Source: Flavobacteriales bacterium
GTDB taxonomy: Bacteria > Bacteroidota > Bacteroidia > Flavobacteriales_F > PHOS-HE28
Reading direction: 5' to 3'
Length of the DNA: 64,000 nt
Assembly: GCA_035441065.1 (NCBI GenBank)
Contig: DAORNP010000001.1
Span: forward strand, 16,300 to 80,299
Part shown: piece by piece, positions 41,142-64,000 of the stretch
Layout: each line of letters opens with the position of its first letter
How positions within the stretch are numbered: position 1 is the stretch's first letter
The notes under the pieces: generated by a model
What the model saw: the letters and a program-made list of their open reading frames with translations, nothing else
Told to the model about the DNA's origin: nothing
Database searches by the model: none
Position numbers and translations under genes: made by a program

Positions 41142-42128
41142 ATGCAGCACCTCATCGACGCCTTCCCCAAACAACTGAAGGAAGCCCTGGAAATAGGCCG
41201 CAAGGCCCAGTTGAAAGCCCCCGGCGGGCCTTACAGCAATGTGGTCGTCACCGGACTGGGCGGCAGCGGCATCGGCGGGCGCATCGCAGCGCAGCTGGTG
41301 CACAAGGAGGCCAAGTGCCCCATCGAGGTCTACAACAACTACTACCTGCCGGGCTATGTGAACCACAAGAGCCTGGTGATTGCCTGCAGCTACAGCGGCA
41401 ATACGGAGGAAACCCTCGCCGCCATGGAGCAAGCGTTGAACAAAGGCGCGCGTGTGGTGGTGATCACCAGCGGCGGCGCCATGCTCGATATCGCCAAGGC
41501 GAAGGGCCTTGACCACATCGTGATTCCGGGCGGCAATCCGCCGCGCACCATGCTGGCCTATTCGCTGGTTCAGCAGTTCTACGTGCTGCACCACTTCGGC
41601 ATCATCGGCGATGGTTTCGAGGGCGCCATCAAGACCGCCGCGAACATGCTGGATCATGAGAAGGAGGACATCAAAAAAGCCGCCATGGACCTCACTGAGA
41701 AACTCGTGGGCAAGCGCTTGGTGATCTACAGCGAGGCCAGCACCGAGGCCGTGAGCATACGTTTCCGCCAGCAGGTGAACGAGAACAGCAAGGAGCTTTG
41801 CTGGCACCACGCCATCCCCGAGATGAACCACAACGAGCTGGTGGGCTGGGCCGGCGGCACCGACGATGTGGCCGTGGTGATCTTCCGCCACAAGGAGGAC
41901 CACGAGCGCAGCCAGATCCGCATGGAGATCAACAAGGAGGTCTTCCGCCGGTACACCCAGCACATCCACGATGTCTGGAGCCAAGGTGACACGGCCTTCG
42001 CGCGACAGCTTTTCCTGATCAACCTCGGCGACTGGGTGAGCTTCTACTGGGCCGAGAAGAAGGGCGTGGACCCCACGGAGATCGGTGTGATCAACATGCT
42101 GAAAGGGAAGCTGGCGGAGGTGAAATAA
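41142..42128 (+). CDS. Bifunctional PGI/PMI (SIS domain), right-arm copy; differs from the left copy at 2 codons (R/K, Q/P).
   Basis: ...EINKEVFRRYTQHIHD... here versus ...FRKYTPHIHD... in the left arm. Confidence 0.7.
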   Translation: MQHLIDAFPKQLKEALEIGRKAQLKAPGGPYSNVVVTGLGGSGIGGRIAAQLVHKEAKCPIEVYNNYYLPGYVNHKSLVIACSYSGNTEETLAAMEQALNKGARVVVITSGGAMLDIAKAKGLDHIVIPGGNPPRTMLAYSLVQQFYVLHHFGIIGDGFEGAIKTAANMLDHEKEDIKKAAMDLTEKLVGKRLVIYSEASTEAVSIRFRQQVNENSKELCWHHAIPEMNHNELVGWAGGTDDVAVVIFRHKEDHERSQIRMEINKEVFRRYTQHIHDVWSQGDTAFARQLFLINLGDWVSFYWAEKKGVDPTEIGVINMLKGKLAEVK

Positions 42129-45674: not shown

Positions 45675-45906
45675 GTGGCGAAGATAGGCGGGGCCCGAAG
45701 CTTGAGGGCCCCCCGGGAACCCGTGACTAGCCAACGTTCGGTCCGAAAGATGGTGGTACAGAGACATCACTTTGAAGTCTGGTGCGATATCCTCAGGGTA
45801 GAGAGCGAAAGGCACGATGACATGCTGAGCGAGACGCTTGCGTAGATCAGAATGCGATTCCCTGTTCTATCTTCGAGCAGCCCCGAAAAACCGACACTGT
45901 CGCACC

Positions 45907-47472
45907 ATGAAAGTTCTTGACTCGGTACTCACATTGGCGTTGTGGTGCTCATGGTGCGCTGCATCCTTTGGCCAAGCAGGATCGCTTGACCCTGGTTGGG
46001 GCACTGATGGAGTGGTGCTTACCGACTTCTCGAGCGAAAGGGCATATGGCCAATCCGTACTCATCCAGCCCGATGGAAGGGTTGTGGTGGTCGGCACCAA
46101 TTGGTTGGGCGCGCTCAGCAGTGATATCGCCATTGCACGGTATTTCTCTGACGGAACGTTGGATGCGTCCTTTGGGTCTGGCGGCAGGGTCACTTCGGCC
46201 GGGGGAGGCTGGAGTCCGCCGTGCTACGGAGCACTGCAATCAGATGGCAAGATCGTGGTGGCTGGCACACATACATCAGCTTTTTCCGCCATGCGGTTTA
46301 TGGCTGATGGGTCCGTGGATATTTCATTCGGTGAGGGTGGACAGGTCTTCACGAACATCAGTTCTTTCCCCTTGAATGAAAATGTGCTCGCGCTCGTGAT
46401 CCAGTCCGATGGTAAGATCCTGCTGGCCGGCCGAACGGCAAGCGGGCATGATGCCGATATGGCGGTGGTGCGCTACCTGCCCAACGGGGCACTGGACGAG
46501 GGCTTCGCATCCGGAGGGATCTGGGTTCATGCTGTTTCTCCTCTCAATGATCAGATCCGCACCGTACGTCAGCAACCGGATGGCAAGCTGGTGCTTTTGG
46601 GCAGTGCTTCGATTGGAACCTTGCCTTTCCCCGCCAGTCGATTTGCCTTGGTGCGGGTAACTGAGAACGGCCTCCTCGATGGATCATTCGGCACGAACGG
46701 TGTGTCGCTCATCGCCGCAGGCACTGGACAAGCCGGCGTGTACTCTGGTGTCCTTCAAACGGACGAGAAGATATTGGCAACCGGGTTCTCGGGATATCCC
46801 GCGCTGGTTACGACCATCCGCTGTATGTCTGACGGGTCGTTGGATGAGACCTTCGGCAATGGTGGAGTGATCACCACCTATGTGGCCCAGGAGAGCGCGG
46901 TCGGAAAGGATATCGTGGTCCAACCGGATGGGAAGGTCTTGGTGGTCGTTGAATGCTGGGAAGGTACCGGTCCCCCGCACTACACTGCACTTATGCGCTA
47001 TACCCCCGATGGAGTGCTGGATGAGGTATTCGGCAACTCCGGGATAGCGATTACCTCATTCACAGATAGGGCGATCATTCCGGAATCGCTCTCGCTCCAG
47101 TCCGATGGAAAGCCGCTTGTTGCAGGGTATTCCTTCCAAGGCATGGTAACGTATTTTTCGGTAGTGCGCCACCTGAACGACCTGGAGATCGGCGTCCATG
47201 AGATCAACCAATTCCATCCACAAATACGTGTCGTTCCGAATCCACTGAGCGAGCGCCTCAGTCTGTACTTCGAGCTTTCTATCCCTGATCGGATATCACT
47301 CCATGTGGTTGACGCTGCTGGCCGCGTGGTTCGGTCACTTATTTCCAATGAAATGCATACGTCCGGGGAGCATCTGGTCACCTATGATCTTAGGGGCCTT
47401 CCCTCTGGCCATTACACGTTGACTTTCGTAGGCCAAGTGCATGCTGCACAAGCGCCAATCCTCATAGAATAG
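45907..47472 (+). CDS. Delta-60 repeat protein with T9SS CTD, right-arm copy.
   Basis: Identical translation to the left copy. Confidence 0.7.
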   Translation: MKVLDSVLTLALWCSWCAASFGQAGSLDPGWGTDGVVLTDFSSERAYGQSVLIQPDGRVVVVGTNWLGALSSDIAIARYFSDGTLDASFGSGGRVTSAGGGWSPPCYGALQSDGKIVVAGTHTSAFSAMRFMADGSVDISFGEGGQVFTNISSFPLNENVLALVIQSDGKILLAGRTASGHDADMAVVRYLPNGALDEGFASGGIWVHAVSPLNDQIRTVRQQPDGKLVLLGSASIGTLPFPASRFALVRVTENGLLDGSFGTNGVSLIAAGTGQAGVYSGVLQTDEKILATGFSGYPALVTTIRCMSDGSLDETFGNGGVITTYVAQESAVGKDIVVQPDGKVLVVVECWEGTGPPHYTALMRYTPDGVLDEVFGNSGIAITSFTDRAIIPESLSLQSDGKPLVAGYSFQGMVTYFSVVRHLNDLEIGVHEINQFHPQIRVVPNPLSERLSLYFELSIPDRISLHVVDAAGRVVRSLISNEMHTSGEHLVTYDLRGLPSGHYTLTFVGQVHAAQAPILIE

Positions 47473-49431: not shown

Positions 49432-49482
49432 CCCTTGCGCGCATGGGCGCCCGGTTATATTCGGCGCTCAATCGCTTCACGC

Positions 49483-50178
49483 ATGAACAAGGTGGTGGCC
49501 GGGCCCGATGCGGCGCTCGATGGCCTGCAGGACAACATGACGCTCATGGTCGGCGGCTTCGGGCTGTGCGGCATCCCGGAGAACCTGATCGCGGCCATGG
49601 TGCGCCGCGGCACCAAGGGGCTCACGTGCATCAGCAACAACGCGGGCGTCGATGACTTCGGACTTGGGCTGTTGCTTCAGACGCGGCAGATCAAGAAGAT
49701 GATCAGCAGCTATGTGGGCGAGAACGATGAGTTCGAGCGCCAGATGCTCAGCGGCGAATTGGAAGTGGAGCTGATCCCACAAGGCACCTTGGCCGAGCGC
49801 TGCCGCGCCGGTGGCGCTGGCATCCCCGCGTTCTTCACCCCGGCGGGCTATGGCACCGAGGTGGGCGAAGGCAAGGAGGCGCGCGAATTCAACGGCAAGA
49901 TGCACGTGCTGGAGAGCTGGCTCCGCGCCGACTTCGCATTGGTGAAGGCCTGGAAGGGCGATCGTTTCGGCAACCTCGTGTACAAGCGCACGGCGCGCAA
50001 CTTCAACCCCATGATGGCCATGGCGGGCAAGGTCACCGTAGCCGAGGTGGAGCACCTGGTGGAACCCGGCGAGCTCGATCCGGATGAGATTCACACGCCG
50101 GGCATCTTCGTGCAGCGCATCTTCCAGGGCGGCGGCTACGAGAAGCGCATCGAGCAGCGCACGGTGCGCAAACGCTAG
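49483..50178 (+). CDS. scoA: Succinyl-CoA:3-ketoacid (acetoacetate) CoA-transferase subunit A, full copy; straddles the right end of the inverted repeat at 49682.
   Basis: [36 protein letters not shown]...[12 protein letters not shown]...[33 protein letters not shown] verified at 49483; TAG at 50176..50178. Confidence 0.85.
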
Positions 50179-50180
50179 GC

Positions 50181-52001
50181 ATGCTGTCCGGCTCGCACAT
50201 CAGCCGGAATGATGGTGTCGCGATGGCCCTGGCTGCGGCGCTCTTCGGCGTGTACCTCGGGGTGCGTGCCATCCATCTGCCGTTGATCCAGGATGAGGCC
50301 AACTCATTCTGGTGGTACGTGGCCTCCGGTCGATTCCTTCCGCTGGATTCACATCTCGATGCCGGCAACCACCACCTGAGCAGCTTCTTCGGCTGGCTCG
50401 GATACTCGCTCTTCGGCGCTGAACCCATAGCGCTGCGCTTCGGCAGCTTGCTCGCCTATGCCCTTTATGCAGCCACGCTAGCTCACCTCGCACGGTACGT
50501 CCGGTCAGGCTGGATACGATGGTGCTGCTTCCTTGCACTCCTCACATGCCCCTTCCTGCATGAGTATTTCGCCCTGTTCAGGGGCTATGGCCTCGCCGTG
50601 GCCTTTTTCGGGCTGGCCGTGCTCCAATCTGTTATTCTGATAGAGGGCCGTAAGCCAATCAACGCGGTTTGGCTCATCGCGGCGGCAACCATGGCCGCGC
50701 TCGCAAATCTGTCCATGCTGCCTCTTTGCTTGGTCATGGTAGCAGTGGCGGCGATCCTCGGCATGCACGGCGGATTCGTTCCTGCCCGGGCTGCCCATCG
50801 AATTGGGATCGCTGCCGCAGCCCTCGGGTCATTGGCGATATTCGTCCTGCTGGCCTTCGTGTCGATGGCATTGAAGGGCCAAGGACTGCTTTACCACGGT
50901 GCCGGCAACGGCCTGCTCGCGGTGAGCGTGAATAGCCTGTGCCAAGCGATCTTCGGATGGAGCGCCTCGAAGCTCCCGATTGTTTGTGCCGCTATGGCCA
51001 TCGGTGGTTGGTTGGTTGGATTGAACGCTCTTTATCGCAAGCAGCCGGGATCAGGTGCTCTGGTTGTCGTTGGTGCATTGCTTGGAACCGAGTGCATCAT
51101 CCGCATCGCGCTGCAGGAGGTACTCGGCGTCAACTATCCGCAGGATAGGGCCGCTTTCCAGATGCTCATCTTGTTCCTGCTGCTTGCCTCATTCGCTATC
51201 GATGAACTCGGAGTGCGCTCAGCATGGGCGAAGGCTTCGGCAGTGGTGTTCTTGGCGCTGCCCATCATCACGCTCTCCAGCCTGAACGCAGAAGTGGCCA
51301 TGAACAATGGAGAGCCTGCCGTTCCGAGGCGATTCATCCATCGGCTTGCACAGCTCCAACTCGAATTGGGGCGACCTGTAATTACGGCTGTTGGCAGCAA
51401 TTTGCGGAGCGGGGTCTCCTTCGCGCAATTCCGCGACGCCGCCTTCATTCAAGAGTCAGAAGACCAGCGATTCGACCATCCAGGACAGGATTTCCGCATC
51501 GTGCGCGATACGGAGCTTCACACGGTACAGGACGGGTATCATGCGGTCGATAGCAGTACAGCCGGTTGGGTCCATCTGCTCAAGCGCGATACACCGTTGA
51601 GCCTCGACCTTGCCTTTGATTCGACCTTGACTGCTCCGATCGAAATGGGCGAGGGCTTCCGGAACATCCTTGAGCAGAGCCCGGGGCGCTTCGGCAACCG
51701 CGCGCTATATGTTCGAGTCACGGGGAATCTGCACCGGAGGCTTGACCATGGGGAATTGCACTTCGTCGTTCACGACGATTACAGAGATGGTGCTGCTTAC
51801 GAGGACGGGACCGACTTAAGGAAGCTGAGGTTGCAATGGGCTGGCGAACCCTTCGATATCATGCGTCGGCTGCCCGCCGCTGAAGTGGTCGAAGGAACGC
51901 GGTGCTTCTTCTGGAATACGACATCGATGCCGGTCCAGATGACTGATGTGCGGATCCGGGTCTATGTCACTGGACAGCCTGACCCAATCTCCGAATCTTG
52001 A
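50181..52001 (+). CDS. Polytopic membrane glycosyltransferase, GT-C fold, PMT/ArnT-like (paralog A of a 4-member family in this window).
   Basis: ~12 TM N-terminal domain with loop-1 motif PLIQDEANSFWWYV...DAGNHHLSSFFGWLGYSLFG, resembling the PMT/GT39 DE-loop (FDEVHFGKF...DVHPPL). ~250-aa soluble C-terminal domain. Start is 2 nt after the scoA stop. Confidence 0.55.
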   Translation: MLSGSHISRNDGVAMALAAALFGVYLGVRAIHLPLIQDEANSFWWYVASGRFLPLDSHLDAGNHHLSSFFGWLGYSLFGAEPIALRFGSLLAYALYAATLAHLARYVRSGWIRWCCFLALLTCPFLHEYFALFRGYGLAVAFFGLAVLQSVILIEGRKPINAVWLIAAATMAALANLSMLPLCLVMVAVAAILGMHGGFVPARAAHRIGIAAAALGSLAIFVLLAFVSMALKGQGLLYHGAGNGLLAVSVNSLCQAIFGWSASKLPIVCAAMAIGGWLVGLNALYRKQPGSGALVVVGALLGTECIIRIALQEVLGVNYPQDRAAFQMLILFLLLASFAIDELGVRSAWAKASAVVFLALPIITLSSLNAEVAMNNGEPAVPRRFIHRLAQLQLELGRPVITAVGSNLRSGVSFAQFRDAAFIQESEDQRFDHPGQDFRIVRDTELHTVQDGYHAVDSSTAGWVHLLKRDTPLSLDLAFDSTLTAPIEMGEGFRNILEQSPGRFGNRALYVRVTGNLHRRLDHGELHFVVHDDYRDGAAYEDGTDLRKLRLQWAGEPFDIMRRLPAAEVVEGTRCFFWNTTSMPVQMTDVRIRVYVTGQPDPISES

Positions 52002-52028
52002 GGCTCACATGAGCAGCACACGCATCTG

Positions 52029-53750
52029 TTGGTCGCGCTGGCGTTCCTGTACCTGCTGTTGCGCGCTGCACTCGTCCCCCTCGCCCACGACGAGGCCGCC
52101 ACCTTCCAGACCTATGTGCTCACGGGCAATTACCTCCCCTACCTCGCGCATTGGGATGCCGGCAACCATCTGCTGGTAACCGCCGTGGCGCGCGGCAGCT
52201 ACTTGCTCTTCGGCGATGGGCCGCTTGCGCTGCGCGGTTTCCCGGTGCTCTGTTTCTTATTGTGGGCCTGGTATGCGCTGCGCTTCGCACTGCTCTTGGA
52301 GGAGCGCATGATCCGCTGCGCGCTATTCACAGCGCTCCTGCTCATGCCCTTCGTGGCCGAGTTCTTCGCGCTTTTCAGAGGGTATGGTCCTTCGCTCGCA
52401 TTCCTGCTCATGGCATTGTTCCATGCCGTTCGTTTCACTGCGGAGGCGCGCCGCACAGACCTCGTCCTCTTGCTCGTCGCCATGCTGCTCGCTTGCGCGG
52501 CATCGCTCACGCTGATCATGTTCTGGTGCATGCTGCTCGCCGGAAGCGCCGTGGTGCTGCTCCGGAACAGGCGGCGCGATGCATCCGCTTGGGCGGCCTT
52601 GCTGATCATCGGCGCGCTGCCCCTGCTCCTCGCGGCCCACTACTCCTTCGAGCTCTCGGCGCGCGGGCTGCTGTATTACGGCACGGGGGATGGGCTGCTC
52701 TCGGGTACACTGGCCTCCTTGTCCAAGTGGGTGTTGGGCATCGGCGATGGTTCCATTGGCGCGTTGATCATGCTCTTGCCCATTCCCATCGGAGCCTGGG
52801 CCTTGCGTGCGGGTCGGCATCGTATGGTGATCAGTGGCCTGATGCTGCTCATCCTCGGGGAATTGCTGGGGCGCTTCATCCTTGCCGAAGCTTTCGGTGT
52901 GCTGTACCCGCAGGATCGCACAGCCATGCATCTGGTGCCTGTGCTCCTGCTGCTCTTCGCGTTCTCGGTTTCCGCGCTGACCAACGAACATGCTTGGTGG
53001 CCATGGGCCTCAGTCATCCTGTTCGTCCTGCCATTGCGAACGGCGATGGGCCTCAACTTCGATCGCACCTCATTCTGGCCGGAACAAGCCATCCCCGCAG
53101 GCGTATTCGAGGCGGTGATGGATCGTCAGGCGCAACTCACCCGGCCGTTGGTCATCGGCGGCTACCACCAGCATGCGGCGGTTTGGGCCTATGGCAGCAT
53201 GCGCCGCAATGGGTCCTTGCCCATGCTCGACGTGAATGGTTTCCCGCAGCCCACCTGTGACCTGATGCTCATCGATCGCAGCTATTTCCAGGCGCCTCCG
53301 GGGTTCAGCGTGATCACGGAAGCGCCGCACGGCAAGCTCACGCTCATGCAACGCGATCCGCCTTTGGTCACCACCATCGTGATGGACACCGCGCTCATCG
53401 TTCAACCAACCGATGCGGAATTCATCGAGCTCCTGGTCGTCGAGGGCGTCCCGTGGTTCGCTGAAGAATCCCTCATCGAGGTGGATGCGGTGCTCCGGAG
53501 CGTGTCGGCACCCTTGGACGTTCGCCTGGTGGTTGAGGTGAAGGCCGCCGATGGCACAAGCCTGCATTACGATGTGGTGGATGCGCAGCGCGTGCGCGCG
53601 CAATGGCAAGGCGAGGATTGGCGCGAGATCCGGCGCGCGCCCGCTCATCCCAACGCGTCCCGATTGGTGTGCTACCTCTGGAATCCGCAACGGCATGTCT
53701 TCAGCGCCGACCATGTGCAGGTGAGGGCGCATCGTGTCCTCGACCCATGA
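52029..53750 (+). CDS. GT-C PMT/ArnT-like membrane glycosyltransferase paralog B (TTG start per ORF track; N-terminus ~8 aa shorter than paralogs).
   Basis: PLAHDEAATFQTYV...DAGNHLLVTAVARGSYLLFG; same architecture as paralog A. Confidence 0.5.
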   Translation: MVALAFLYLLLRAALVPLAHDEAATFQTYVLTGNYLPYLAHWDAGNHLLVTAVARGSYLLFGDGPLALRGFPVLCFLLWAWYALRFALLLEERMIRCALFTALLLMPFVAEFFALFRGYGPSLAFLLMALFHAVRFTAEARRTDLVLLLVAMLLACAASLTLIMFWCMLLAGSAVVLLRNRRRDASAWAALLIIGALPLLLAAHYSFELSARGLLYYGTGDGLLSGTLASLSKWVLGIGDGSIGALIMLLPIPIGAWALRAGRHRMVISGLMLLILGELLGRFILAEAFGVLYPQDRTAMHLVPVLLLLFAFSVSALTNEHAWWPWASVILFVLPLRTAMGLNFDRTSFWPEQAIPAGVFEAVMDRQAQLTRPLVIGGYHQHAAVWAYGSMRRNGSLPMLDVNGFPQPTCDLMLIDRSYFQAPPGFSVITEAPHGKLTLMQRDPPLVTTIVMDTALIVQPTDAEFIELLVVEGVPWFAEESLIEVDAVLRSVSAPLDVRLVVEVKAADGTSLHYDVVDAQRVRAQWQGEDWREIRRAPAHPNASRLVCYLWNPQRHVFSADHVQVRAHRVLDP

Positions 53751-55501
53751 CGGATTCGCCAGCCTCCTCGCGCGAAGGCGTGGTCTTCTTCGGGCTTGCG
53801 GCCCTGATGCTCATGTACGTGGTGCTGCGCGCGGCGTACGTGCCTTTCGTCCACGACGAAGCCACCTCCTTCATCGCCTATGCGCAACCCGGCACCTTCC
53901 TGCCCTTCGCCTCGATGTGGGATGCGAACAACCATTTCCTCAATAGCCTATGCGGACATGCCGGATACCGTCTGTTCGGATTGCATCCGCTCGCCTTGCG
54001 CTGGGCCAGCGTACTGAGCTATGTGCTGTTCGCCTGGTGCGCATGGCACTTGGGCGAGCGCATCGGTCGGCCCATCATCCGATGGTTGCTCTGGCTGGCG
54101 TTGCTGGCCTGTCCCTTCCTGCTCGATTTCTTCTCGCTCTTCCGCGGGTACGGACCCGCCATGGCCCTGCTGCTCCTTGCTGTGTATCAGGCATCGTGCT
54201 ACCTCGAATCCCGCTCGGAGCGGAGCCTGGCGGTGAGCCTCTTGGCCATGAGCGCCGCAATGGGCTTCATGCTGGGCCTTCTTCCCCTGGCATTGGTGCT
54301 GCAGCTGGCGCTCTTCACGGCTGCCTATCGCGTGCGGCGTCACACCGTGATCGGCATCGCACTGGGATTGATTCCGCTGCTCCTGATCGCTTTGCTCGCC
54401 AAGCACATGGCCGCTCTCGGATTGCTCTACCATGGCGGCACCGACGGCTATGCCAGCACAACCATCGGCTCATTGCTCAAGTTCACGTTCGGCGTTGTTG
54501 GCGAAGGCAGGCCCCAATGGCTTGTGCTGTTCACGACGTTCTTAACGGCACTGCTTATTTGGATGCAGCGTCGTGCGGGCATACCGCATCACCTCATGCT
54601 TGTCGCGGCAATGCTCTGGGGCGAATGGGCCTTGCGCTGGTTGCTGGCGTGCACCATCGGCCTGAACTACGCCGAGGACCGCACCGCCCTGCATGTGCTC
54701 GTGCTCTTCATCTTGTTCGTCGCGTTCACCGCTGATGCATTGCGACGCCTGCATGCGGCTGCTTGGCTATTGGCAATCCCCCTGCTCGCATTGCCGCTGC
54801 GCGTGGCGTTCACGGCCAACCTCGATCGCACAGCCCTCTGGCCCGAGCAATCCATCCCCGGTCGGTTCATGGCACGCATCGAAGCGCTGGAGAAGGAACT
54901 CGATCGCCCGGCCATCGTGGGCGCGCATCGCCTGGCAACGATGCCCTTCGGACTGCAGCGCCGATTGCGGGGCGGCGAGGGCGATGCCACGGCGGCGAAC
55001 TGGCCAAACGCATTGGCCGATGCACGGATCGAAATGCTCGGCGTGCCATTCGATAACGACCAGCGCTTCGCACTTGCCGATAGCGCATCGAATGGACTCC
55101 GTTTGTATGTGCGTTCGCCCATGTGGCATTCAACCCTGCAACGCGATAGCGCATTTGCTATGGAATCGGACGGTGGCATGCGGTCCGTGGGCCTCCCGAT
55201 TCCCGCACAACTCATTCAAGCGAGCGATGTCATTGTTGATGTGAGCGGCTCCCTGCGAGCCACCAGCACGCTCGACCTGCGCGCCTGCGTAGCCGTGTAC
55301 GACAGCACTGGTGCCGTTCTTCATGTGGACCACTTGATGCTCACCACCCGGCGCGCGCTTTGGAACGGCGAACACTGGCGAACAGCATTGGCGATTCCGC
55401 GTGAGCCGCTTGCAGCGCGCGCCGAGTTCTTCCTCTGGGAGATCGGCCACGGGCCCTTCAAGCTGAGCCAAGGTCGCATGCGCGTGCATGCGATGCGTTG
55501 A
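53747..55501 (+). CDS. GT-C PMT/ArnT-like membrane glycosyltransferase paralog C.
   Basis: Start ATG 53747 overlaps the paralog-B stop (ATGA at 53747..53750). [14 protein letters not shown]...[20 protein letters not shown]. The ORF track's upstream start at 53603 is rejected as an overlap. Confidence 0.55.
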
Positions 55502-55557
55502 GTGGGCGATTCGTTGCGGTGGTTGTCGGCTTCTACATTTGGCGCAACCCAACTTGC

Positions 55558-56214
55558 ATGGCGCTCACCAAAGACCAGATGGCCAAGCGCATCGCGCGCG
55601 AGCTGAAGGATGGCTACTACGTGAACCTCGGCATCGGCATTCCCACCCTGGTGGCCAACTACATCCCAGAGGGGATCAACGTGGTGCTGCAAAGCGAGAA
55701 CGGGATCCTCGGCATGGGGCCCTTCCCTTATGAAGGCGAGGAGGACGCCGACCTGATCAATGCCGGCAAGCAGACCGTGACCCTGCTGGGCGGCAGCAGC
55801 ATCTTCGACAGCGCCACCAGCTTCGCGATGATCCGCGGGCAGCATGTGCAGCTCACGGTGCTCGGCGCCATGGAGGTGAGCGACACCGGCGACATCGCCA
55901 ACTGGATGATCCCCGGCAAGATGGTGAAGGGCATGGGCGGCGCCATGGACCTGGTGGCGAGCGCCGACAACATCATCGTGTGCATGATGCACGCCAACAA
56001 GGCCGGCGAGAGCAAGCTCTTGAAGAAATGCACCCTTCCGCTCACCGGCGTGGGCTGCGTGAAGAAAGTGGTCACCGACCTTGGCGTGTTCGACATCACC
56101 CCCGACGGCTTCAAGCTCCTGGAGCGCGCGCCCGGCGTGAGCGTGGAGGAGATCAAGGCGAAGACGGAGGGACGGCTGGTGGTGGAGGGAGAGATCAAAG
56201 AGATGAGTGTGTGA
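55558..56214 (+). CDS. scoB: Succinyl-CoA:3-ketoacid CoA-transferase subunit B.
   Basis: [37 protein letters not shown]...SENG (catalytic Glu in the SENG motif). ATG verified at 55558. Confidence 0.85.
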
Positions 56215-56223
56215 CATAGCAGC

Positions 56224-57567
56224 ATGGTCCCCAACCTACCGGACCGATTGCGCCTTTTCATCGCGCACTGCGCAGGCAACGGCCGATTCCTATGGGTGGC
56301 GTGGGCCGTTTTCTGTGGCTTCTTCAGCTGGTCCTCCATCGACTTCAACTCCAAGATTCCTTTGGAAGACTGGCGGCACGATCTGCGCGGGGACGCTTCG
56401 GGCTATTACATCTACCTGCCGGGGACCTTCCATCACGGAATGCGTGCGGCCGATATGAGCGACAGCCTTCGTGTGGTCGCGGGCCTCGGATTCACCTTGG
56501 ACCGGGAGAACGACCGCATCATTACCAAGTACACCTGTGCACCAGCCATCCTCATGCTCCCCTTTTACCTGCTGGCGGAAGCCATCGAGGGATGGGGCGT
56601 GAGCGATGGCTGGAGCCGTACGCATCATCAGACCATCGAGCTGGGCGCGGTGTTCTATTGGTCGTTGGGACTGATGCTCCTCGCCGGATCACTCATGCGG
56701 CGCCTGCCCACTGTGCCAGTGGTCGCCATACTGTGCGTGGCAGCGATCGCTTTCGGCACGAACTCCTTCTACTACGCCTTCAGGGCGCCGGCTTTCTCGC
56801 ATGTGTATTCGTTCTTCCTCGTGTGCCTGGCCATCCACGCGATCTACGTGGATCCCGGGCGGCCCATGCGGAAGGGCATGCGGTGGCTCTTCTTAATCGC
56901 CTGTGCCATGATCGTCGCGGTGCGGCCCATCGACGTGGTGGCGGCACTGGCATTGGTTGGGCTGTTGGGCATTGAGCGGCCCGGTGAACTACGGCAACCT
57001 GGCTTCTATCCGGCCGGGGTGCTGGCATGCGCGCTGGTGGCTGCGCCGCAACTCCTCTTCTGGAAGTTCGCGCATGGCCATTGGCTCGTGTACAGTTACG
57101 GGGAAGAAGGGTTCACAAACTGGGCATCGCCTTACATCAAGGAAGTGCTGATGGCACCCAGGAACGGGCTTCTTCCGCATGCCCCCGCGCTCTTCTTGTT
57201 GCCGTTGGGGCTGTGGGCGCAATGGCGCGTTGATAAGCGCGTGGCGCTCCTGTTGGCTGCGACATTCGCCATCATCCTCTATTCCTTCGCAGCATGGCAT
57301 TCCTGGGATTTCGGCTGCAGCTATGGCATGCGGCCCTTCGTGCAGTACACGCCCTTCGCGGCCCTGTTCACCTGGCCGCTATTGCACATGCTGCATGCGC
57401 GTTGGCCGCCTGTGTTCTGGTCGTTGGCCATCGTGCTCGTGTTGGTGAGTTTCGTGAATTACAGGGCCATGCTCGAATACGACGGCTGCAATCTGTGGCC
57501 CTTCTGGGATTGGCTACCCTTCGGCCGCAACCTGTGGGAGGCCTTCTTTGGCCGGTTCCCATGCTAG
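56224..57567 (+). CDS. Polytopic integral membrane protein of unknown function (possibly another GT-C-like or polymerase/ligase-like transferase).
   Basis: 447 aa, >=10 predicted hydrophobic helices, Trp/Tyr-rich loops. Immediately follows scoB and precedes the GT2 gene. Confidence 0.35.
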
Positions 57568-57625
57568 AGGCTGGTCTACTTTCGCGCCCCCTGCGCGCGA
57601 TCGTCCGCAGGGAGCCTTCCAAAGC

Positions 57626-58336
57626 ATGATCCGTACGCTTTCCATCATCATCCCCGCTTATAACGAGGAGCGCACCATCCACCTGATCCTGGACAAGGTG
57701 CGCGATGTGGTGCTTGCTCAAGGCATCCAGAAGGAGGTGGTAATCGTGAATGATGGCTCGAAGGATGGCACTGCCGCAGCGATCTCGCAATACATGGAGG
57801 CGAACCCGCAGCTTGGGATCCGATTCTATGAGCAGCCGCGCAACATGGGCAAGGGTGCCGCCATCCATCGCGGCATCCAGGAGGCCACGGGCGAGTACCT
57901 CATCGTGCAGGATGCCGACCTCGAATACGATCCGCGCGAGTACAATGACCTGCTCAGGCCCGTGCTCGAAGGGTTCGCCGACGTGGTCTTCGGCTCGCGC
58001 TTCATGGGCCACCACCCGCACCGCATCCTCTTCTTTTGGCACAGCATCGGCAACAAGTTCCTCACCTCCCTCTCCAACGCGTTCAACAATTTGAACCTGA
58101 CGGACATGGAGACCTGCTACAAGCTCATCCGCAGCGACATCGCCAAAGGACTTGTGCTGAAAGAGAAGCGCTTCGGATTCGAACCGGAGGTCACCGCCAA
58201 GCTCGCGCGGGTGAAGGGCGTCCGCATCTACGAGGTGGGTATCAGCTACTACGGCCGCACTTACGCAGAGGGCAAGAAGATCGGCTGGAAGGACGGCTTC
58301 CGCGCCATCTGGTGCATCGTGAAGTATGGGCTCTAG
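57626..58336 (+). CDS. GT2 family polyprenyl-phosphate sugar synthase (DPM1/ArnC/GtrB-like).
   Basis: [14 protein letters not shown]...[11 protein letters not shown]...[13 protein letters not shown] (DxD)...VVFGSRF...[11 protein letters not shown]: diagnostic of dolichyl/undecaprenyl-phosphate glycosyltransferases. ATG verified at 57626. Confidence 0.85.
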
Positions 58337-58340
58337 CGCA

Positions 58341-60101
58341 TCACTGCGCCTGCTGCTGATCGAGCCAGATCATGTACTCCGAATTCCGGCGCAGCGCTTC
58401 ATCAATCGACTCGTGCTTCCAGAATGCCTGCCTGCGCACCGAGGCGAACCAGGCCTCATCGCCCCGTATCAACTGGTCATAGTACTCCAGGTCCTTCTCG
58501 GCGGGAAGCACGGCACGCAGCGGCTCTGCTTCCGAAGCCTTGGCCAATGAGTCATCGGTTGCGATCACGCGATACTGGAACAAGCGCGTTCCGCGAAGCA
58601 CGATCGGCTCAGACACGGCGAGCGGCATGTCGACACCTTGAAGCCGCATCACATCACCGCGCCATTCGACCAGTTGCTGCAACATGCCCGTGCGGCTGAA
58701 GACCATGACGCCCTGCTTGTGCGTTGCGAGCAATTCAACCGCCTCCTCCGGCTTGAAGCCTTCGTGCTTGGCGCCGCCCACCACCATGGTATTCGGAAGA
58801 GCATGCAGCAGGATGTAGTAGCTGGCATCCCACGAGTGGAAGTCAAGGATCAATCCATCGCCCGCCCGCGCCTGCGCATTGATCACCGCCAACAAGGCCT
58901 CAGTGTCGTTCCCGTAGAGCCTGGGCACCACCTGCATCTCGCGGTAATGACCGAGCACAAGTCCGTCCATCGCAGTGCTCAGCGCACGTTCGCCCAATAG
59001 TTTGGTGAAATCAACCTTGCCGAACACAAAAGCGAATGGCAGGGTGACGATGATGCCCAACGGCATGATCACCCTGTGGATAGCCCGCCAGCGCAACGCG
59101 GTAAAGACGAGCGCGACGAAGGGCAGCAGGAGGATCAACCAGGTCACCAAGAAGCGATGGTGGAGCATGAGTGATCCTTCCCAGGCTTTCTTCTGGAAGA
59201 TGATGGCCATTGCGGCGAAGGGGATCAGCCAGATCCATTGCGGGCCAGTGAGCTTTCGACGGATGGCGGCAAGGAAGGTCGCAAACAGCAGCAACAGCGC
59301 GCACACCGGTGAGCTGTTCAGCACGAAGGACCAGCCGAAGAAGATCACGCGCTGGATCCGTGTGGCCTTCGTCACATCGTCGTTGATGCCCTCCTTGCCC
59401 ATGTTCCACTCGTCGTTCTGGTTCACGCTGTAAAGCGCATCGCCGAACTCGATCTGGTTGCCCACCATCCACACCGCCGGGAAGAGCATGGCAAAGGCCC
59501 AGAACACGATCGCGATGCGCCAGCCATGCAGCAGGAGCGCTACCAGCGAGAGCGCCGCGATGAGCACCCACGCCTCATAGCGCGTAGCGGCTGCGCAGGT
59601 CATGAGCAGGCCGGCAACGGCGGCGCTCCGCCACGCACGTGGCTGTCCTTGGTTCAGCGAGAGCGCGAATAGCGCCGAGGCGAGGAAGAGGCCGTAGGTG
59701 ACCTCCGAGAGCGCCTGCAAGCTGGTCCATAGCGCGATTGGGCTGAACACGTAAAGGAGCGCTGCGAACACGGCCCCTCGCCGCGAACCGAAAACCGTGA
59801 GCGTAAAGCCATACAAGGGAATGGCCGTGAGTGATGCGGCCAGCACGCTCAGGAGCTGCGGTCCCAGCGCCTTGCCAGGGAAAATGAGCATGAAGAGCGC
59901 ATTGAGGTAATGGTGCAGCGGCCCCCAGTAACCGTGCGTGATCCAGTGCGGGTCCTGCAACCATTCCAGGGCGATGTGTATCCGGCTCACAGCGTCGGCC
60001 TGCACCGTCTGGGCCCACGGCAGCATGGTCAGGCGAACGATCAGCGCCGCTGCCGCGATCAGCAGCGCGTCATTCCGGTTGGTCCTCGGAAACAGGCTCA
60101 T
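58341..60101 (-). CDS. GT-C membrane glycosyltransferase, PMT_2/ArnT (GT39/GT83)-like, with C-terminal soluble domain.
   Basis: 586 aa; N-terminal ALLIAAAALIVRLTMLPWAQTVQADAVSRIH..., multiple TM helices, then a ~200-aa hydrophilic tail. Convergent with the GT2 gene (4-nt gap). Confidence 0.45.
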   Translation of the reverse strand: MSLFPRTNRNDALLIAAAALIVRLTMLPWAQTVQADAVSRIHIALEWLQDPHWITHGYWGPLHHYLNALFMLIFPGKALGPQLLSVLAASLTAIPLYGFTLTVFGSRRGAVFAALLYVFSPIALWTSLQALSEVTYGLFLASALFALSLNQGQPRAWRSAAVAGLLMTCAAATRYEAWVLIAALSLVALLLHGWRIAIVFWAFAMLFPAVWMVGNQIEFGDALYSVNQNDEWNMGKEGINDDVTKATRIQRVIFFGWSFVLNSSPVCALLLLFATFLAAIRRKLTGPQWIWLIPFAAMAIIFQKKAWEGSLMLHHRFLVTWLILLLPFVALVFTALRWRAIHRVIMPLGIIVTLPFAFVFGKVDFTKLLGERALSTAMDGLVLGHYREMQVVPRLYGNDTEALLAVINAQARAGDGLILDFHSWDASYYILLHALPNTMVVGGAKHEGFKPEEAVELLATHKQGVMVFSRTGMLQQLVEWRGDVMRLQGVDMPLAVSEPIVLRGTRLFQYRVIATDDSLAKASEAEPLRAVLPAEKDLEYYDQLIRGDEAWFASVRRQAFWKHESIDEALRRNSEYMIWLDQQQAQ

Positions 60102-61620
60102 GCGCGTGAAGGTCTTCGATTGCGGGCACTAGTGCGCCAGCCGAGTCATACGGCGCTTCGGAGGCGCGCCTGAGAAGAAGGGTACGCGCGTGCGGGAACG
60201 CAGCGACCTCGACGAATCCGATGGGAGCCGCCGTGTCGTATTCCGACACGTAGCGGTAATCGTCGTCGGGGCGCAAGCCTTCGCGATCAAGCGTGCAAAG
60301 CCAATCGAGCCCACGCGTGGTGCGGTAATAGTTCAGGCTCGGCTCATACAGCCAGTCGATGCCCAGTTGCACGAAGCCCTCGCGGCGCCAAACGTGCTCG
60401 CGATCCGCGATCAAGGCATCCAAGGCTTCTTTGGTCTGTGAGTCGTAGCCCCATTCCCAACTATGGTGTGTGCCGAAGCGCTTGGCGAATGGCGGGACGG
60501 CCCACATACAAGCGGCGCAAGCGATCAGGATCGGCGCCACAGGATGCTTGCGCGCCCATAGCCCCAGCAACAGGATGAAGCTGAGCACGAGCGGCACCAA
60601 CAGGAAGAGCGCGAATCGCGACTTCAGGTGATCGACGCCGAAGAGCAGGTGCTGAGCATAGGCCCCCATCCCGATCAGCACTAAGGTCAGCGTCGCGATG
60701 GCCAGCCCGGCGTTCGCGTTCAGAAAACCACTTGCTCTGCTCCTTCGCAGCCCCAAGAGCACCACCACAAGCGCGATGGCCACCACTAACGTGAGGATTA
60801 CCCAAGCCGCCATCAGCCGATCGCCCTGCAGGCTCAGGGTTGGAACCATGCCGTCGATGAGGGTGGTCACGGTATCTGAATAGAAGCTCGATTTGCCGCC
60901 GAAGTCGAGCGGATTGGCCTCGCGCACACGGCGGATGGGCGTGCTCAGCGCGATGAAGGATGCTATGAGCAAGAGGCCGTTCGATTGCGCAACGGGGCGC
61001 AAGCGCTCCCAACTCCAGCGATCGGCATAGGCGCCGGCCATCGTGCAGACCGCGTAGGCACCAAGCACAGCGACATAGCCGGTGAGCAGCGCGAAATTGC
61101 TCAGGGTGGCGAGCACGCCGGCCAGGTGCATGAGCGCGAGCTGGCCGGATCCTGAACGACTGATGGCCCGACTGGCGTGGTAGATGGCCATGGCGAGGAA
61201 GCCGTAAGAGAGGCCATAGCCGCGCGCCAGCGTGAACATCTCCATGAAGTACACATTGGTGAATAGCAGCGGAAAGCCCACCACGATGAGCAACGGGTGG
61301 CAGCGCCGGATGAGCAGGGCCGTGTACACCAGATACAGTACGAGCGCCAGCAGGTTCGGCAGACGAAGGGCGAGTTCACTTGTTCCGAAGAGCGCCATGC
61401 TGCCCTTCATGGCCAGGCTGTTCAGCAGGTGGTTGTTGGTGTAGGCGGATTCATGGTTGAGCAGCTTCCCGACCGAGAGCTGCGGATAGTTCAGAAAGGT
61501 GATGGCTTCATCATGCGTGAACGATGCCGTGGCCGCACGGTGCGTGCAGAGCGCGAGGATCACTGCCGCGCACAAGACGAGGTAGGCCGTGACCCCATGA
61601 CGCTGCATCAAGGACCTCAT
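60070..61620 (-). CDS. GT-C PMT/ArnT-like membrane glycosyltransferase paralog D (fourth member of the tandem-array family, on the opposite strand).
   Basis: SFTHDEAITFLNYP...TNNHLLNSLAMKGSMALFG...FTLARGYGLSYGFLAMAIYHA aligns motif-for-motif with paralogs A-C. Start ATG 61618..61620 (MRSLMQRHG) overlaps the stop of the upstream gene (ATGA). Confidence 0.55.
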   Translation of the reverse strand: MRSLMQRHGVTAYLVLCAAVILALCTHRAATASFTHDEAITFLNYPQLSVGKLLNHESAYTNNHLLNSLAMKGSMALFGTSELALRLPNLLALVLYLVYTALLIRRCHPLLIVVGFPLLFTNVYFMEMFTLARGYGLSYGFLAMAIYHASRAISRSGSGQLALMHLAGVLATLSNFALLTGYVAVLGAYAVCTMAGAYADRWSWERLRPVAQSNGLLLIASFIALSTPIRRVREANPLDFGGKSSFYSDTVTTLIDGMVPTLSLQGDRLMAAWVILTLVVAIALVVVLLGLRRSRASGFLNANAGLAIATLTLVLIGMGAYAQHLLFGVDHLKSRFALFLLVPLVLSFILLLGLWARKHPVAPILIACAACMWAVPPFAKRFGTHHSWEWGYDSQTKEALDALIADREHVWRREGFVQLGIDWLYEPSLNYYRTTRGLDWLCTLDREGLRPDDDYRYVSEYDTAAPIGFVEVAAFPHARTLLLRRASEAPYDSAGALVPAIEDLHAHEPVSEDQPE

Positions 61621-63917
61621 CGGACGTTGCGATTCAAGGGTGCGGCATACAAGGTGTCGTCCACCGGAATATTGTTGAAGTGCAGGCCTTCGGCATCGGT
61701 GCGCCAGGCCTGTGTGGCCAATGGCCGGAAGAGCACATGCTCCACAACAGCGCGCGTGCGGTTCTGCTCCGGTCCACCGAGCATCACACGGTAGCGGCCG
61801 CTGGCACGCTTGGGGCGGAAGGGCATCGCCGCGATGGTGCGGTCGTGCAACTGCATGGGCATGGATCGCACATCCCGGAAGCCTTCCCAATCGACCTTGC
61901 CATCGGGATCGCCATGCTCGATGATCAGCCACGAGTTCACGGCATCACCATCGATGGCGCGCACCACCGCGCACAACTCGTAGGTGACTGAAGTGTCCAG
62001 TTGCGCGGCATCGAGTTCCATCAACCGGATGAACTCGCTCACCCATCCCTCGAAGGGACCGGCGGCATACGCGACTGCGGGTCGCGAATCGGAACCGGAT
62101 TCCAGCCAAAGGCCCTCTTGGCGGACCATGTGCCCGCTCGTTTCTGTGAATCGCTGCCGAAGGGCTGGCCCATCCCATGCGAACAGGTCGGCAGCGCTGA
62201 TCAGGCGCAATTCACCGGCTTCAGTGGCGCGAAGCGGGGCTCCCTTGCGCCAGAGTGAATCTTCTTCAGGTTCCAGGTCATCCCTGCTCCACAGGATCGC
62301 GAGCATCGCTGTTGGGGGAATGGCTTCGGCCACGCGCTTCTTGAAGGCCCTTGGCGCGCGAAGGGCCAGAAGCTGCCGGGCGTGCTCGTACGAGGTGCGT
62401 ATGAGGTTGCCCGCCATCAAAGGCGTTCCCGCACGGTAAGCCACGCCGTACGCCAACGCATGCAGCCGCTCGGGCGCGCCCTTTCCATATCGCTCCGAAC
62501 CGCCGTGGGGGAAAGGCAGGGGGATGACCGCCGCTGCGCCGCTGGTGCGCACGGCTTGCGCAAGCAGCTCGAGATTCGAGTTCGCTGTTCGCGCATCGAA
62601 CACATTGCGCGCATGGCCGATCGACCGTGCCATGGATGCCATCACCGGCCAGCCTTCCGCAGCATAAGAAGCCATGAGCAGTGCGAAGACCGCACCTCCG
62701 AGCACGCGTCGTTTGCGCTGCGGTGCGGCAAGCCATTGCCAGGCACGAGCCGCGCAGAACAGCAGGCACACGAAGTAGAAGGCCCATGCGAACCGGCCCG
62801 TGGATCGGAATTGCTTCAGCATGGGAAGCGCATCACCCAGTAGTTCTCCAAGCACATTCATGGCGAAGAGCAGGACCAGCGCGGCAGCGATCAATTGCAT
62901 GGCGGGCTCATCGGGGCTCAGTGCCGCACGGCCACGTTTCCGCAATCGCGCAACAAGCACCACGATCGCCGCGAGCAGCAGGAAGGGCGTTACGATGCCC
63001 AAGTAGCAGAGCGACTCCCACGCGAGGCCGCCCTCGGGCTTGAGCGGATGCACCCATGCACTCATGGGTGGTTGCGTGGAGACCAGCAGGCTCTGCCAGC
63101 GCGTGGCGTAAGCATCGGCGCCCGGTGGTGTCTCGGGCCGGTCGGGCAAGCGGTCGCTGGCATTCTCCAAGGCGAGGAACACGGCCACCGGCAGCACCGC
63201 CATTGCGCCGACGTCGATGTAGGTGCGCTTCTGCTTCAGCGGCCTCCATTCCACGAGCGCTCGCACGCCGATTGAGGAAGCCACGAAGAGCGCGCTCATC
63301 AAGCCGAGATACGGATGCGTGAGCAGCGCCAGCAGCACCAGCGCGCAGGTGAAGAAGGCCCAGACCCAGCGCTTCTTTGCATCGCCAGCGCGAAGCAACG
63401 TGTACCACGTGGCGGGGAACATCCAGCAATGCGCCAGCGCGTAATGGCCGCCCAAGCGGTACACCTGCGGCTGCAGCATGCTGATGGCAACCGCTGCCAA
63501 CGCCGCAGCCCAAGGTGCCATGCCCCAACGCCGCCCGATGGCGAAGAGCGCCCACGCACAGCCCAACGGCGCGAGCAGGAGCAACACGTTCAACACTCCG
63601 ATCTTCCAGGGCTTCAGCCAAGGCAACTGTTGAATGAGCCAAGCCAGTGGCGGATGCCCATCGGTGTAGAAGATGTGGTCGCCATAGGGATAGCCGGAGC
63701 CGTTGAAATGCAGCAGATCCCGACCATGCTCGGCATGCCACGCGTAGGTGAAGTAATTCTTCAGTCCATCACCATCGGCCGATAGCAGGACCGCATTCGC
63801 GTTCTTGAGCGGTTCGCCGAAATGCGCGAGGATTACGCCCAGCATCACTGCCGTGAGCGCCAGCCACCAGGCCCAAGCACGCTTGGCGGGTTGCGGAGCA
63901 GCACCTTGAGCGGCCAT
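61617..63917 (-). CDS. Large (~766 aa) polytopic membrane protein with C-terminal soluble domain; uncharacterised, candidate GT-C-type transferase.
   Basis: Start at MAAQGAAPQPAKRAWAWWLALTAVMLG (cat at 63915..63917; the ORF could extend to 63992). Loop motif LLSADGDGLKNYFTYAWH. Translationally coupled to paralog D. Confidence 0.35.
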   Translation of the reverse strand: MAAQGAAPQPAKRAWAWWLALTAVMLGVILAHFGEPLKNANAVLLSADGDGLKNYFTYAWHAEHGRDLLHFNGSGYPYGDHIFYTDGHPPLAWLIQQLPWLKPWKIGVLNVLLLLAPLGCAWALFAIGRRWGMAPWAAALAAVAISMLQPQVYRLGGHYALAHCWMFPATWYTLLRAGDAKKRWVWAFFTCALVLLALLTHPYLGLMSALFVASSIGVRALVEWRPLKQKRTYIDVGAMAVLPVAVFLALENASDRLPDRPETPPGADAYATRWQSLLVSTQPPMSAWVHPLKPEGGLAWESLCYLGIVTPFLLLAAIVVLVARLRKRGRAALSPDEPAMQLIAAALVLLFAMNVLGELLGDALPMLKQFRSTGRFAWAFYFVCLLFCAARAWQWLAAPQRKRRVLGGAVFALLMASYAAEGWPVMASMARSIGHARNVFDARTANSNLELLAQAVRTSGAAAVIPLPFPHGGSERYGKGAPERLHALAYGVAYRAGTPLMAGNLIRTSYEHARQLLALRAPRAFKKRVAEAIPPTAMLAILWSRDDLEPEEDSLWRKGAPLRATEAGELRLISAADLFAWDGPALRQRFTETSGHMVRQEGLWLESGSDSRPAVAYAAGPFEGWVSEFIRLMELDAAQLDTSVTYELCAVVRAIDGDAVNSWLIIEHGDPDGKVDWEGFRDVRSMPMQLHDRTIAAMPFRPKRASGRYRVMLGGPEQNRTRAVVEHVLFRPLATQAWRTDAEGLHFNNIPVDDTLYAAPLNRNVR

Positions 63918-64000
63918 TGGTATGGGATCACTTCGGCTTACCGACGACCGCCTCGCTGACCTTGCCGAAGAAGTGCTTCCACTCCCAGCCATGATCCGAC

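Follow-up and report, generated by a model that had tools for sequence, protein, structure and literature searches.

What task could require seven polytopic membrane proteins to be encoded around a single soluble glycosyltransferase of family 2 (GT2)? The question is raised by a cluster of about 14 kb at positions 50181-63992 of a 64,000-nucleotide stretch of DNA from a Flavobacteriales bacterium (GenBank assembly GCA_035441065.1, contig DAORNP010000001.1, positions 16,300 to 80,299 of the forward strand), which was analysed as a whole and is called the window here. Five of the seven membrane proteins belong to two families without a Pfam or NCBIfam model, namely four paralogs A to D and a protein of 447 residues; the other two have 586 and 766 residues. 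A sequence-only reading had taken this region for a lipid-linked glycosylation island, presumably different from the general O-glycosylation locus described for Bacteroidota. The open reading frame (ORF) listing confirmed the genes and their coordinates, as well as the ATGA overlaps at 53747 (ccATGAcgg, start of C and stop of B) and on the reverse strand at 61620-61617 (ccgATGAgg, start of D and stop of the 766-residue protein). The earlier count of six polytopic proteins was wrong, since four paralogs and three further proteins are present. As far as fold, class of enzyme and gene linkage are concerned, the earlier interpretation is supported, and in our assessment the island is probably a polyprenyl-phosphate-sugar-dependent periplasmic glycosylation system in which one donor-making enzyme serves many transferases.

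The four paralogs formed one family. They aligned along the membrane domain with 22-31% identity to A and BLASTP E-values from 1e-7 to 3e-66. B and C were 33% identical over their full length (E = 3e-66), and D matched B at 9e-15 and C at 6e-13. The acidic first-loop motif by which they had been grouped was present as described, with HDEA...D(A/T)xNH...RGYG common to all four. RGYG was invariant and the preceding part varied, reading QDEANSFWWY...DAGNHHL in A, starting with HDEAATFQTY in B and reading HDEAITFLNY...TNNHLL in D, with DANNHFL also found among the paralogs. The proposal that each paralog has a distinct C-terminal domain was only partly right: it holds for D, where this region is different and shorter, but the domains of A, B and C are homologous to each other and align to the end. 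A, B and C gave no match in the Pfam and NCBIfam scans, all homologs of C were unnamed proteins of uncultured Flavobacteriales devoid of a Pfam domain, and 7 of 38 relatives of A-D matched PMT_2 weakly. The family profile retrieved 5,101 cluster representatives among 1.84 billion (clusters at 50% identity), 2,271 of them at E <= 1e-30. The A-D family is large, diverse and unannotated.

A structure model was made for paralog C, to whose family A and B belong. This AlphaFold model, computed from a 38-sequence alignment, reached a pLDDT of 91.8 and a pTM of 0.91 and showed about 11 transmembrane (TM) helices and a beta-rich C-terminal domain; the loop following TM1 contains two short helices. Its best structural match, like that of the model of the 766-residue protein, was yeast Pmt4 followed by Pmt2, and Foldseek returned EmbA/B/C, ArnT, ALG9 and STT3 independently for C. 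The polytopic membrane domain was found to be structurally similar to solved glycosyltransferases of the GT-C class, for which 7-13 TM helices are characteristic. Solved GT-C enzymes have their catalytic Asp at a position just after TM1, and conserved acidic residues occupy this position in each family of the island: D37/E38 in A-D, D57 in the 447-residue protein and D50 in the 766-residue protein. According to the secondary structure of the model, TM1 of paralog C comprises residues 8-31, and the D-E motif lies directly behind it, at the start of the first-loop helix (36-46), as expected from the earlier reading; across 38 sequences, conservation of both residues is 90% or higher. The periplasmic side of the acidic loop would follow from the fold. 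Hydropathy-window counting of TM helices was too coarse for topology. The C-terminal beta-sandwich of C is a jelly-roll, which structure comparison likened to carbohydrate-binding modules (CBMs).

The remaining membrane proteins reach the GT-C class by different routes. The 447-residue protein itself gave no Pfam or NCBIfam match, and 2 of its 27 relatives matched PMT_2 weakly. Profile-profile comparison by hhalign connected its family to A-D at 92.6% (E = 4.5e-7) after remote homologs had been added to a shallower first alignment that had given 58%. By this criterion the family is a remote homolog of A-D and a probable GT-C. D57, H193 and R234 are its invariant residues, D57 standing after TM1 in the motif DxxGYYxYLP and being invariant in 35 sequences. 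The 586-residue protein, named 'glycosyltransferase family 39 protein' by NCBI, was the only one of the seven to exceed the gathering threshold of PMT_2 (PF13231); A, B, C and the 447- and 766-residue proteins did not match this model. For the 766-residue protein, which had no NCBIfam match, the structure model showed a GT-C fold followed by an alpha/beta region and a C-terminal, CBM-like beta-sandwich, and D50, in the motif GDGxKNY after TM1, was invariant in 25 sequences. No hhalign signal connected its family to A-D (6.9%) or to the 447-residue family (3%), so that the structure model is the one line of evidence placing it among the GT-Cs. The precomputed annotation assigns this protein and its 26-27 relatives to PF19830 (DUF6311), a family without an assigned function; our local Pfam-A scan, from whose library the family seems to be absent, gave no such model at E = 10, and a literature search on PF19830/DUF6311 found nothing. 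On the strength of the model, we predict that DUF6311 proteins are glycosyltransferases of the GT-C class whose C-terminal domain is CBM-like.

Profile and single-sequence searches of the A-D, 447- and 766-residue families and of the 586-residue protein against all PDB sequences gave nothing meaningful. None of the seven matched Pfam PMT (PF02366) or MIR, even with E-values of up to 0.1 admitted, and a literature search on GT-C work in Flavobacteria/Bacteroidetes returned nothing relevant. The link to known GT-Cs is visible only via the fold, the weak PMT_2 matches and the profile-profile comparison. No profile search placed A-D in a non-glycosyltransferase family; this, the PMT_2 match of the 586-residue protein and the hhalign link of the 447-residue protein agree with the GT-C-type assignment made before.

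The best solved relatives of the GT2 enzyme ('glycosyltransferase family 2 protein' at NCBI) were the dolichol-phosphate-mannose synthase of Pyrococcus (PfDPMS, 6e-15), Synechocystis GtrB (3e-14) and ArnC (3e-11), each of them a polyprenyl-phosphate-sugar synthase. The PfDPMS alignment covered residues 6-220 of 237, with the DAD motif kept (VMDADLQHPP in PfDPMS), and this full-length correspondence bears out the earlier description of the enzyme as DPM1/ArnC-like. Among the NCBIfam models, AglJ and PgfS matched best. Full or near-full-length alignments were obtained with AglJ (7-235), PpgS (8-207) and ArnC (3-196), and also with a dolichol-phosphate-hexose transferase, whereas PgaC, EpsD, WcaA and HpsE, family 2 enzymes which do not use polyprenyl phosphate, aligned only with the N-terminal 100-120 residues. 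All these scores stayed far below the equivalog cut-offs (55 against 529 bits for ArnC), therefore no specific ortholog can be assigned and the sugar cannot be named. From these alignments we predict a polyprenyl-phosphate-sugar synthase of the DPM1/GtrB/ArnC type. That the GT-Cs use a lipid-phosphate-linked sugar as donor is a step we infer from a single element, the DPM1/GtrB/ArnC-like enzyme encoded beside them. The genes, which form two convergent, tightly packed units, are listed in Table 1.

Table 1. Genes of the island and of the interleaved CoA-transferase subunits, in window coordinates
Feature	Coordinates	Strand	Remarks
scoA, CoA-transferase subunit A	49435..50178	+	Pfam CoA_trans 260 bits; conserved left flank, stops 2 nt short of gene A
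Paralog A, 606 aa, GT-C-fold membrane protein with C-terminal beta-sandwich domain	50181..52001	+	Aligns with B, C and D; hypothetical protein at NCBI
Paralog B, 573 aa, GT-C-fold membrane protein with C-terminal beta-sandwich domain	52029..53750	+	HDEA/NxH/RGYG motifs
Paralog C, 584 aa, GT-C fold, jelly-roll (CBM-like) C-terminal domain	53747..55501	+	Modelled
scoB, CoA-transferase subunit B	55498/55558..56214 (likely ATG 55558)	+	Pfam CoA_trans 171 bits; parts A-C from the remaining island
447-aa polytopic protein, probable GT-C without C-terminal domain	56224..57567	+	Profile-profile link to A-D
GT2, 236 aa, predicted polyprenyl-phosphate-sugar synthase	57626..58336	+	Glycos_transf_2 110 bits; DADLE motif
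586-aa GT-C, PMT_2 (GT39/GT83-like) family	58341..60101	-	PMT_2 35 bits, cut-off 26.1; convergent with GT2 gene
Paralog D, 516 aa, diverged from A-C within the same family, short unrelated C-terminal region	60070..61620	-	BLASTP to B and C; PMT_2 19 bits, below cut-off
766-aa DUF6311 protein	61617..63917 (alternative start 63992)	-	GT-C fold model; CBM-like C-terminal beta-sandwich

A genome scan, in which scoA/scoB pairs were mapped by tblastn, recovered 78 related loci, all in metagenome-assembled genomes (MAGs) of uncultured Flavobacteriales/Bacteroidota. The order scoA, one to three GT-C genes, scoB, variable GT-C genes and GT2 recurred in more than 50 species-level Flavobacteriales MAGs. 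scoA was 78-97% identical in 70 of the 78 loci and scoB 76-97% in 68. All 51 informative loci encoded a GT2 enzyme 79-92% identical to that of the window; its gene shared the strand of scoB and followed it at a distance of 38-6597 nt. In each of the 55 loci where scoA and scoB share a strand, one, two or three copies of the A-D family lay between them (36, 14 and 5 loci, respectively). The interval from scoB to GT2 was variable and encoded membrane proteins resembling the 447-residue protein, D, PMT_2 or, weakly, GT87. Across genomes the flanks and GT2 were 80-97% identical, and the GT-C genes mostly about 30%. A close relative (L001) does not have A; GT-C copy number therefore shifts over short evolutionary distances. 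In the locus L083, which was reached via the 766-residue protein, scoA and scoB are adjacent and the island lies downstream, therefore the insertion between the CoA-transferase subunit genes is a feature of a subclade. Of the single island seen by the sequence-only reading, the genes were borne out, its contiguity was not, as A-C are flanked by scoA and scoB. It possibly runs beyond the end of the window, since the related locus L004 has another 447-like gene past the ortholog of the 766-residue protein.

Several observations accompany this comparison. The two subunit genes are of the 3-oxoacid CoA-transferase type, and no functional reason was found for their interleaving with GT-C genes. In L079 (a JGI contig with the same gene order, 7873-8316) scoB was called as 147 residues, compared with about 218-238 here, which may reflect a frameshift or a difference in gene calling. 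The block from scoA to the 766-residue protein gene (window 38241-63917 compared) is inverted relative to the conserved LysRS-PGI-LplA block between this genome and L081 on one side and L082 and L083 on the other, which suggests that the DNA around the island was inverted or otherwise rearranged. Islands of other MAGs contain more polytopic families, for instance at L066:5981-7852 (+), L081:14152-15996 (+) and L069:145-1371 (-); one such cluster comprised 74 ORFs from 43 loci with a median of 565 residues and a weak GT87 match, and others matched PMT or PMT_2 weakly. The GT-C repertoire of the clade therefore exceeds that of the window.

The ratio of nonsynonymous to synonymous rates (omega) against the closest genomes was 0.05-0.13 for scoA, scoB and GT2 and 0.11-0.30 for the GT-C genes. 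With the orthologs in L004, omega was 0.21 for A (85% identical) and 0.12 for the 586-residue protein (84%); values of 0.22-0.23 were found for B. The TM and C-terminal parts behaved alike. The GT-C genes are functional and under somewhat relaxed purifying selection; they are not pseudogenes. Positive or diversifying selection on the C-terminal domains was considered and rejected, omega being 0.1-0.3 and equal in TM and C-terminal parts. A recently acquired mobile island was likewise rejected: the GC content varies little (0.60-0.64), the island contains no genes for integrases or transposases and the layout is found in more than 50 species-level genomes. Synonymous divergence (dS) from L004 was uneven, at about 0.30 for scoA and scoB, 0.39-1.22 for the GT-C genes and 0.58 for GT2. 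This could be due to codon-usage constraint on the CoA-transferase genes or to recombination or exchange within the island.

How might such a system work? Judging by its homology, the soluble GT2 enzyme would act at the cytoplasmic face of the inner membrane and charge undecaprenyl or another polyprenyl phosphate with a sugar of the hexose type, taken from a nucleotide sugar. A transporter encoded outside the island would flip the lipid-linked sugar to the periplasmic leaflet, where the seven proteins of predicted GT-C fold (A, B, C, D and the 447-, 586- and 766-residue proteins), each with a conserved Asp or Asp-Glu in the predicted first periplasmic loop, may use it as donor for extracytoplasmic acceptors. 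The jelly-roll, CBM-like domains of A, B, C and the 766-residue protein suggest that the acceptor would be a glycan, be it a polysaccharide, a chain of lipopolysaccharide (LPS) or lipoglycan, or the glycan of a glycoprotein. A glycan acceptor would be expected because CBM-like C-terminal domains are also present on the Emb arabinosyltransferases and the GT136 enzyme, whose acceptors are glycans (PMC11127046). Three-component systems of this kind are known, and in GT136 a GT-C carries a CBM that binds the acceptor polysaccharide (PMC11127046). Several GT-Cs might add sugars at different positions or in succession. Given the observed variation of the GT-C set beside a conserved donor synthase, surface glycan structures may then be lineage-specific.

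Several results weigh against this proposal. Neither the island nor four related loci with Pfam annotation (among L079-L083) contained a flippase of the GtrA, SMR/ArnEF, MATE or Wzx type. GT2 carries none of the C-terminal TM helices of GtrB, ArnC and PfDPMS, as no hydrophobic segment occurs in its 236 residues. Profile searches linked A-C and the 766-residue protein to no solved GT-C by sequence. The C-terminal beta-sandwich resembles viral jelly rolls as much as CBMs, and because the viral folds match equally well, glycan binding by this domain is not established. The CoA-transferase genes inside the island have no obvious role there. All organisms concerned are uncultured. As to the missing membrane anchor, synthase activity is compatible with a soluble enzyme because the polyprenyl-phosphate subfamily of GT2 has soluble members, namely eukaryotic DPM1 and mycobacterial Ppm1. 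In L082 and L083, unannotated short ORFs close to the island were tried as flippase candidates and rejected, as they encode soluble proteins.

A bolder version of the glycosylation pathway, to which we give a low probability, would have the uncultured Flavobacteriales clade build a major envelope glycan sugar by sugar in the periplasm from a single polyprenyl-phosphate-sugar donor, with at least seven GT-Cs from three or more families not described so far. Such a pathway would be more than a simple side-chain decoration and would correspond, in a Gram-negative clade, to the assembly of mycobacterial lipomannan/arabinan or to the ALG steps in the lumen of the endoplasmic reticulum, and co-transcription with scoA and scoB would then reflect a real regulatory or metabolic coupling.

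Protein O-mannosylation, non-functional co-location and ArnT-like modification are all less likely than donor-dependent glycosylation by the whole set. Yeast Pmt4 and Pmt2 being the top structural matches of both models, the first of these would have the GT-Cs act as PMT-like protein O-mannosyltransferases, each paralog with its own set of periplasmic or surface proteins, in the way of eukaryotic PMT1-7, TMTC1-4 and TMEM260 or of actinobacterial Pmt fed by Ppm1. The D-E motif is situated in loop 1 as in PMTs, the 586-residue protein bears the name GT39 at NCBI and the best solved relative of GT2 makes dolichol-phosphate-mannose. Bacteroidota moreover O-glycosylate many proteins (PMC10897501). 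Against this, neither MIR nor any other PMT loop-5 domain is present, PF02366 matches none of the seven proteins and the C-terminal modules are closer to CBMs than to peptide-binding domains, which makes direct protein O-glycosylation rather unlikely.

Tight packing, gene overlaps and the arrangement in two convergent units are difficult to reconcile with the absence of a common pathway, as is the close, same-strand linkage of GT2 to GT-C genes, seen in 51 of 51 loci. Such an explanation would regard the region behind scoA/scoB as a hot spot for membrane protein genes, GT2 as an ordinary cytoplasmic glycosyltransferase and the GT-Cs as enzymes with donors from elsewhere, some of them perhaps inactive. 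The interleaved CoA-transferase genes with no evident functional link, the lack of a flippase in the island and related loci, the wide variation of GT-C content among genomes and the difference in dS between flanks and GT-C genes would fit it. GT2 nevertheless matches polyprenyl-phosphate synthases over its full length, and the conserved acidic residues and omega values of 0.1-0.3 argue against decay, so that we consider co-location by chance of place very improbable. Least credible of all is an ArnT-type modification of lipid A or the LPS core, with GT2 as ArnC and one or more GT-Cs decorating lipid A phosphates with a sugar, either cationic or neutral. In its favour, GT2 has ArnC among its closest solved relatives and PMT_2 includes ArnT-like enzymes, but no ArnA/ArnB/ArnD-like genes or ArnE/F flippase occur in the island, the related loci or the unique half of the window, the GT2 score of 55 bits is far from the ArnC equivalog cut-off of 529, and seven transferases, four of them with CBM-like domains, go far beyond what lipid A modification needs.

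The proposed glycosylation island shares with Gtr-type systems (GtrA/GtrB/Gtr* of Shigella and Salmonella; Citrobacter ORF15/ORF14/ORF12 with GT136, PMC11127046) the linkage of a GT2-type polyprenyl-phosphate-sugar synthase to a GT-C and a transferase repertoire that varies between strains; a GT-C with an added periplasmic CBM-like domain is also found in ORF12. Unlike those systems, it contains no flippase gene, has seven GT-Cs per synthase instead of one and a GT2 without membrane anchor, is neither phage-borne nor located beside an O-antigen cluster, and comprises GT-C families without Pfam or NCBIfam models. The multiplicity of GT-Cs recalls the mycobacterial assembly dependent on polyprenyl-phosphomannose and decaprenyl-phosphoarabinose. 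It differs from the mycobacterial and corynebacterial pathways (Ppm1, PimE, MptA/B/C and Pmt; decaprenyl-phosphate-arabinofuranose, EmbA/B/C and AftA-D) by the Gram-negative Bacteroidota envelope and by showing no detectable sequence similarity. To our knowledge, pathways with multiple GT-Cs are best known from Actinobacteria and none has been described in Bacteroidota. In contrast to PMT (GT39) and ArnT (GT83), A-C and the 447- and 766-residue proteins lie below every PMT/PMT_2 threshold, MIR is absent and no genes for 4-amino-4-deoxy-L-arabinose are present. Judged by the features that define them, the Gtr, Arn and PMT systems do not include the island, and only the 586-residue protein is a bona fide PMT_2 member.

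If the assignment is true, the A-D family, the 447-residue family and DUF6311 would be new GT-C glycosyltransferase families and candidate CAZy families like GT136 (2024), and DUF6311 would gain a testable function. One highly conserved donor synthase amid fast-changing transferases would provide a compact example of surface-glycan diversification in a group of bacteria that is abundant and uncultured in wastewater and freshwater. The outcome is a number of GT-C families not described before and, for Bacteroidota, an unusual layout with multiple GT-Cs; the type of enzyme is well known and no new principle is involved.

The contig itself calls for a remark. Positions 1-49682 of the window are their own reverse complement over the full length, with 99.94% identity, 30 mismatch columns and no gaps, and the two arms of the palindrome meet at its centre, 24841/24842, without a spacer (…ggactgatcagtcc…). 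On the single contig of 82,280 bp, NCBI lists two accessions for every island protein, and the sums of the pairs are constant; the whole contig therefore folds back on itself and carries the island two times. A chimera formed during assembly or amplification is the most likely cause. The gene order was reproduced on the independent contigs L079 (JGI), L080 (Logan) and L004, so the island does not depend on the palindromic contig. The public contig is flagged here as a fold-back palindrome with every gene annotated twice.

Outside the island, the unique part of the window contains housekeeping genes. A membrane protein of the MOP family (Polysacc_synt_3, 24902-26335, +) adjoins the centre of the palindrome and is the only MOP-family gene in the window, 25 kb from the island. 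Nearby, an NTP_transferase with hexapeptide domain (sugar-1-phosphate nucleotidyltransferase type) is encoded at 26906-27913 (+), and a bact-PGI_C/SIS isomerase (bifunctional-type PGI) is encoded at 41142-42128 (+). To see in these three genes, 8-25 kb away and with nothing linking them to the island, a flippase and suppliers of nucleotide sugar would be speculation. Finally, a 544-residue protein (45838-47472, +) shows DUF5122 beta-propeller repeats and a weak match to Por_Secre_tail, the sorting domain of type IX secretion, which is consistent with the Bacteroidota origin of the DNA.

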